This document shows positions 4,321 through 4,533 of a stretch of DNA of 64,000 bases, one piece after another; positions within the stretch are counted from its first letter, which is position 1, and each line of letters begins with the position of its first letter. The position numbers and the translations under genes were made by a program. Location: contig NC_090334.1 in the NCBI RefSeq assembly GCF_035084215.1, positions 71,982,001 to 72,046,000 on the forward strand. The letters are read 5' to 3'. This DNA comes from Heptranchias perlo (lineage: Eukaryota). The notes beneath the pieces are model-generated. The model was not told the DNA's origin. It saw only the letters and a list, made by a program, of their open reading frames with translations, and did no database searches.

Positions 4321-4533
4321 AACAAGCACCAGGAATGACAATAATGTCAGAGTTGCCCATGATGCCAGAACCTGCAAAGGGAGATTTGAAGGAATGCTAC
4401 TATAATCTGAATGATGAGAACTTCTGTGATAATTTGCTAGCACGAAACATCACAAAAGAGGAATGCTGCTGTACTGTTGGAGTTGGTTGGGGTGACAACT
4501 GTGAAGTTCACCCTTGTCCCATGATCGGCACAG
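4321..4533 (+). CDS. LTBP2: LTBP2 exon: linker plus most of the TB3 (8-Cys) domain
   Basis: aatag|AACAA...ACAG|gtaaaa; encodes [47 protein letters not shown]. Confidence 0.93.

Follow-up and report, generated by a model that had tools for sequence, protein, structure and literature searches.

A shark LTBP2 gene keeps the four-residue TB3 spacer of TGF-beta-binding LTBPs, an ancestral feature lost in therian mammals

Results

Organization of the gene and its TB3 domain

The window, that is, the whole stretch of 64,000 nucleotides analysed here from the 3.25-Gb genome assembly of Heptranchias perlo (G000), carries on its plus strand eight exons between 4321 and 25537 which, with ag/gt ends throughout, join into a single open frame encoding a C-terminus of 497 aa. 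The first exon (4321..4533) is in frame, encodes a linker and the TB3 (8-Cys3) domain from Cys1 to Cys7, and matches Pfam TB with E=1.1e-12. It is followed by the exon with Cys8 of TB3 (10777..10863), a calcium-binding EGF exon (12416..12544, from splicing and domain search), a calcium-binding EGF-type exon (13225..13365), the TB4 exon (16541..16714, again from splicing and domain search), an exon with the end of TB4 and a long Tyr/Pro/Gly-rich linker (19391..19831), an EGF exon (24322..24471) and the last EGF exon with the stop codon (25377..25537). The resulting order, TB3-EGF-EGF-TB4-long linker-EGF-EGF, is that of LTBP2 orthologues, and long linkers are described as typical of LTBP2 and LTBP4 (PMC3906135, excerpt). 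A first-pass annotation had delimited the TB3 feature as 4395..4533; its coding nature stands, but the exon begins at 4321 and holds Cys1–Cys7 only, Cys8 being encoded in the following exon, at 10777-10863.

Between Cys6 and Cys7 of TB3 lie four residues, as read in frame 1 of window 4350-4600 (TGTGAAGTTCACCCTTGT, CEVHPC, 4500-4517), the equivalent of EIFP in LTBP1, and TB4 has the ordinary two-residue spacer (CALC, 16687-16698), both exactly as first described. Loop 1 of TB3 spans 4407..4427, with Leu (equivalent to L1008) at 4407, Phe (L1013) at 4422 and Cys2 at 4425, and an N-glycosylation sequon, NIT, lies at 4446..4454. The resemblance to LTBP1 TB3 noted at first pass, acidic residues and sequon included, was borne out, as the closest PDB matches are LTBP1 TB3 structures (9r3s, E=5.8e-26; 1ksq, E=2.1e-24), with fibrillin TB domains at E=2.4e-6 or weaker. 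Sequence identity to 1KSQ fixes the fold of the domain.

Contigs from runs X1, X2 and X8 contain the TB3 exon and downstream exons with the introns left out of the spacing, and run X5 gave a shorter contig of the same intron-less kind. Keeping in mind that X1 and X2 come from a single sample, perhaps the one from which the assembly was made, that X8 comes from another organism and study, that the RNA nature of the runs is a guess, and that none is recorded as RNA, a blank that speaks neither way, these contigs fit spliced transcripts. The introns themselves hold many high-copy repeat fragments (approximately 2570-3560, 5330-7620 and 11520-12100), which we take to resemble LINE retrotransposons, with very high depth from 5141. 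Positions 1-33 of the window repeat the short sequence at 10521-10553, where it forms one side of an inverted repeat (near 10520-10600), and the intronic region 21000-21750 is strongly CpG-rich (59-71% GC).

The gene is the orthologue of LTBP2

The spliced 497 aa are identical (497/497) to a public LTBP2-like protein of the same species (P0124), and this C-terminus is 77-86% identical to LTBP2 of other cartilaginous fish and 59% identical to shark LTBP1. In a tree built from the part behind TB3, with TB3 excluded (42 rows, 326 columns, one too-short row and six redundant or short earlier candidates having been left out), the window gene falls within an 18-row LTBP2 clade with support of 100/99. 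The clade unites chimaera, shark, skate, ray-finned fish, coelacanth, axolotl, sauropsid, marsupial and placental sequences, and its branching follows the species. Forcing the window gene into LTBP1 costs 91.6 log units and is rejected (p-AU 2.3e-9), so that tree and AU test rule out its identity as LTBP1. Identity as LTBP4 is ruled out likewise: LTBP4 is the sister of the LTBP2 clade (91/93), forms a separate 100/99 clade without the window gene, and has its own locus in this genome, on contig C44 (L003, at 7.81 Mb; CQIYHC; 100% identical to a named LTBP4-like protein). LTBP1 is also separate (contig C8, CEVFPC), and LTBP3 lies on C46, where the TB3 exon falls in a 200-N assembly gap (L042:3753-3952) just before the Cys8 exon.

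Downstream in the window, on the minus strand, are two tandem NPC2-like genes, copy A at 40047..48804 (ML domain E=3.2e-10; first and last exon read) and copy B at 51938..59891 (ML domain E=1.3e-8), the ends of both being approximate. Each has a signal-peptide exon, an ML-domain exon and a last exon, and they were the only two matches in a genome search for the ML domain; the NPC2 neighbourhood assumed at first pass is thus present, albeit with two genes rather than one. Approximately 4-6 kb beyond the window end, on the plus strand and head to head with copy B, lie two ISCA2-like (Fe-S_biosyn) exons (L028:4427-6168, G000:C10) with E=7e-5 and 0.25, each under the curated cut-off; an ISCA2 family search of the genome gave no match, and the exons emerged on reading the DNA beside the window. 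Human LTBP2 presumably adjoins ISCA2 and NPC2 as well, and we take the NPC2-ISCA2 pair to be inverted here relative to LTBP2 when compared with the human order. The TB3-free tree, which is the phylogeny suggested at first pass with TB3 kept apart, and the NPC2/ISCA2 neighbourhood confirm that the gene, of which the window contains the 3' end, is the orthologue of LTBP2, as had been proposed. Several LTBP2-type proteins carry an LTBP1 label in UniRef (P0136, P0137, P0139, P0151, P0250 and others), and such mislabels may have hidden the spacer pattern described below.

The four-residue spacer in non-therian LTBP2

A sample of LTBP2 was obtained with coelacanth TB2 as the query, which imposes no selection on TB3. 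The best 120 of 490 matches comprised one LTBP4, one kiwi model with a garbled TB3, 48 therian and 70 non-therian proteins. Among these, the four-residue spacer was present in all 70 non-therian LTBP2 proteins and the two-residue spacer in all 48 from marsupials and placentals, the latter as the first-pass annotation had held for mammals. When these were pooled with TB3-selected matches (best 120 of 570), 229 proteins were scored, with three rows left out and the kiwi row mis-parsed into LTBP1; in the pooled listed matches 102/102 non-therian LTBP2 proteins had four residues, whereas marsupials had DP (5/5) and placentals DL, EL, DP or EP (43/43). These counts are inflated by isoforms, amphibians are represented by a single species, and the matches listed in the protein searches contained no LTBP2 from monotremes, frogs or lungfish.

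The spacer is found in sharks, rays, chimaera, bichir, paddlefish, teleosts, coelacanth and axolotl and, among sauropsids, in turtles, lizards, tuatara, alligator and birds. The suspicion that it had been retained in some fish lineages was therefore right for fish and too narrow, since birds and reptiles keep it too; the comparison across chondrichthyans, bony fish, coelacanth and tetrapods that had been advised returned four residues in every non-therian group. The trait is thus common to every non-therian LTBP2 read and, judged from these sequences, is no peculiarity of the shark genome. Its wording varies among the listed non-mammalian matches (EVHP, EIHP, EIHA, ETHP, ETYP, ETLP, ETQP), with Ala in place of Pro common in teleosts (EIHA, at least 33 proteins) and Thr in place of Ile in tetrapods, so that the LTBP2 site may have been weakened stepwise ahead of the deletion. 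Because spacer length changes only once on the tree and four residues are also present in amphioxus, acorn worm, hagfish and lamprey, the four-residue spacer is the ancestral state, as suggested at first pass, and was lost once, before marsupials and placentals diverged.

A rate shift confined to TB3

We compared the non-cysteine identity of TB2, TB3 and TB4 to shark LTBP2, with 1 to 8 proteins per group. The values (TB2/TB3/TB4) were 0.67/0.68/0.49 in ray-finned fish, 0.67/0.67/0.61 in coelacanth, 0.63/0.62/0.55 in axolotl, 0.67/0.59/0.54 in sauropsids, 0.69/0.41/0.58 in marsupials and 0.62/0.35/0.56 in placentals. While TB2 (0.62-0.69) and TB4 (0.49-0.61) were unaffected throughout, TB3 fell from 0.59-0.68 in non-mammals to 0.41 and 0.35 in marsupials and placentals, respectively, meaning that faster evolution in therians concerns TB3 only. 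A drop limited to this domain and to therians is the pattern expected on release from function.

Binding determinants in the shark TB3

Binding of pro-TGF-beta is reported to require a hydrophobic core (LLVV in LTBP1, FFAV in LTBP3), the full-length EIFP/EIYP, acidic residues and Cys2/Cys6 (bioRxiv 10.64898/2026.08.05.743009, excerpt). In the shark TB3 the core reads L-F-V-M, the acidic residues E5, D12, D17, D39 and E42 are kept (5/5), and so are Cys2, Cys6 and Trp. The spacer matches the LTBP1/3 type in Glu at position 1, an aliphatic residue (Val) at 2 and Pro at 4, and has His at position 3 where that type has Phe or Tyr. Three of these core residues (Phe, Val, Met) recur in shark LTBP1, from which the domain departs at mapped positions only by His for Phe and Val for Ala; the LTBP1 chain of 9r3s has Val there too. 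By alignment, every mapped LTBP1 determinant is kept or conservatively replaced, save for Phe to His.

The Phe of LTBP1 EIFP stacks on aromatic residues of TGF-beta, W330 included, and LTBP1 F1387A still forms 43.85% of the wild-type complex, W1380A forming none (PMC13443091, excerpt). F1042G, EIFP>EIQQ and EIFP>EIGS impair binding, with stress laid on the hydrophobic FP pair (bioRxiv 10.64898/2026.08.05.743009, excerpt). EVHP itself occurs in at least 26 LTBP1-type proteins among the listed matches, all of them teleost (P0011, P0024-P0028 and others), and the tree assigns two of these proteins to the LTBP1 clade. Since Astyanax LTBP1 has EVFP and sturgeon LTBP1 EMFP, teleost LTBP1 and shark LTBP2 probably arrived at EVHP by convergence. 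Teleost LTBP1 of the EVHP type presumably binds TGF-beta; taken together, the activity retained by F1387A and the frequent His of teleost LTBP1 suggest that Phe/Tyr at position 3 is not strictly required. Three first exons of the TGF-beta type that carry the LSTC cysteine are present in the shark genome.

Discussion

Does LTBP2 carry TGF-beta outside mammals?

From the determinants analysed above we consider it likely that the shark LTBP2 carries pro-TGF-beta covalently through TB3, perhaps less efficiently than LTBP1, and the presence of the spacer makes binding likely for non-mammalian LTBP2 generally. By analogy with LTBP1/3 structures, on which each step is modelled, the growth-factor segment of the pro-TGF-beta dimer would dock, in the secretory pathway, in a hydrophobic TB3 pocket formed by Leu, Phe, Val and Met together with Val-His-Pro; the Cys2-Cys6 disulfide would open and bond with each propeptide through its N-terminal Cys; and the secreted complex would be attached to fibrillin microfibrils via the C-terminal TB4-EGF region, to stay there until it is activated. 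The change from Phe to His probably makes binding less efficient and would leave it in place, and therian LTBP2 would have lost the TGF-beta site in one event on the stem.

The spacer length by itself is not a sufficient guide, because human LTBP4 has the insertion (RIQQ) and its TB domain is reported not to bind. The rule that the insertion marks LAP-linking TB domains, as first stated, hence holds for LTBP1 and LTBP3 and fails for LTBP4. In both human LTBP-2 and human LTBP-4 the TB domains are described as non-binding, and human LTBP-2 is instead reported to bind pro-TGF-beta1 covalently via EGF16, not TB3 (bioRxiv 10.64898/2026.08.05.743009, excerpt). The statement that mammalian LTBP2 is a non-binder, also made at first pass, is thus sound for the TB domain and disputed for the protein. 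The widest version of our proposal, that LTBP2 is a full covalent TB3 carrier in all non-mammalian jawed vertebrates including birds, that this was lost once on the therian/mammalian stem with TB3 freed of constraint and binding moved to the adjacent EGF if the preprint holds, and that it has gone unmapped and unprobed in print, is one we put forward tentatively, as a possibility that is on balance unlikely.

An unlikely reading, though one to be taken seriously, is that TB3, in a gene that is LTBP2 with an ancestral spacer, is already a weak or non-binder like LTBP4: most binding would have gone with the change of Phe to His in the first jawed vertebrates, leaving the therian deletion to strike only a vestige. 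The His does sit where an aromatic residue stacks on TGF-beta W330, substitution of the FP pair by Gly or by Gln/Ser impairs binding, and in LTBP4 four residues are insufficient. However, shark LTBP4 (QIYH, KIYQ) has lost D39 and E42, while shark LTBP2 TB3 keeps Glu, Pro, the five acidic residues and the core; moreover, non-mammalian TB3 is conserved as well as TB2, and F1387A retains 44% of complex formation. It is quite improbable that the conservation of TB3 in non-mammals serves another partner or folding, with TGF-beta bound through the preceding EGF as in human LTBP-2. The covalent EGF16 complex with pro-TGF-beta1 and the conservation of EGF16 from shark to mammals would fit such a scheme, but the conserved TB3 residues are the mapped TGF-beta contacts, the EGF16 claim comes from a single preprint that offers no resolved structure, and the six cysteines of shark EGF16 leave none spare. 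An origin of the gene by duplication of LTBP1, or of its TB3 exon by gene conversion from LTBP1, we hold to be extremely improbable: 37 of 48 TB3 residues are identical to LTBP1 TB3 of the same genome and databases label several LTBP2-clade proteins LTBP1, but the TB3-free tree and AU test contradict the grouping, a distinct LTBP1 is present on C8, a tree of TB3 only (56 columns, little resolved) places the window with shark, skate and chimaera LTBP2 and not with LTBP1, and a match of 108/144 bases and of 18/35 same-residue codons makes conversion unlikely.

Significance

We return to covalent carriage by TB3 as the preferred reading. Known beforehand were the annotated gene and the mechanism, which is that of LTBP1/3, so that our findings amount to an evolutionary refinement and not to a new system; added here are the breadth from sharks to birds, the dating of the loss to before marsupials and placentals diverged, the rate shift specific to TB3 and the fit to the 2026 contact map. 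Retention of the insertion by LTBP2 of coelacanth, amphibians and lizards has, rather probably, already been mentioned in one or more reviews by Robertson and Rifkin. In a literature search that fell short of the main reviews of the field, no published statement of LTBP2 TB3 retention in non-mammals was found, and the excerpts available from PMC3906135, PMC7043638, PMC8760520, PMC8990920, PMC8224675 and PMC4019825 make no mention of it. Lack of TGF-beta binding by LTBP2 is restated in the literature as a rule of the family, a zebrafish paper included (PMC8990920, excerpt).

If non-mammalian LTBP2 does bind, fish, amphibian and chick would have a third carrier, the redundancy of ltbp1/ltbp3 mutants would be read differently, and the fitness of these animals as models of human LTBP2 disease (congenital glaucoma, zonule defects) would have to be reassessed. 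The loss of function would be dated to the therian stem, and the natural series EVHP, EIHA, ETHP, ETYP, DP and DL offers material for testing the newly mapped binding rules.

Comparison with known LTBPs

Compared by sequence with TB3 of LTBP1/LTBP3 (PDB 1KSQ, 9R3S), the shark domain is alike in the four-residue Glu...Pro spacer, the five acidic residues, the core, Trp, Cys2/Cys6 and the sequon, and differs in having His in place of Phe/Tyr and in belonging, by tree and neighbours, to LTBP2. Its therian orthologues (human, mouse) have TB2 and TB4 equally conserved and the long linker after TB4, whereas their TB3, described in excerpt as non-binding, has DL, EL, DP or EP and a rebuilt loop 1 without D12 and D17. 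The sister clade, LTBP4, keeps the four residues, with Glu, Pro and D39 missing from most of its rows, sharks included, and in mammals it is reported to bind TGF-beta weakly or not at all. In shark and ray LTBP4 TB3 (L003; P0230-P0239), loop 1 and the four residues are kept, as QIYH, KIYQ or RIYQ (QIHP in Narcine), and D39 is lost, which suggests that the LTBP4 site was altered already in early jawed vertebrates. With non-mammalian LTBP2 the shark gene has the four-residue spacer in common and differs in nothing essential; it is an ordinary member of that group.
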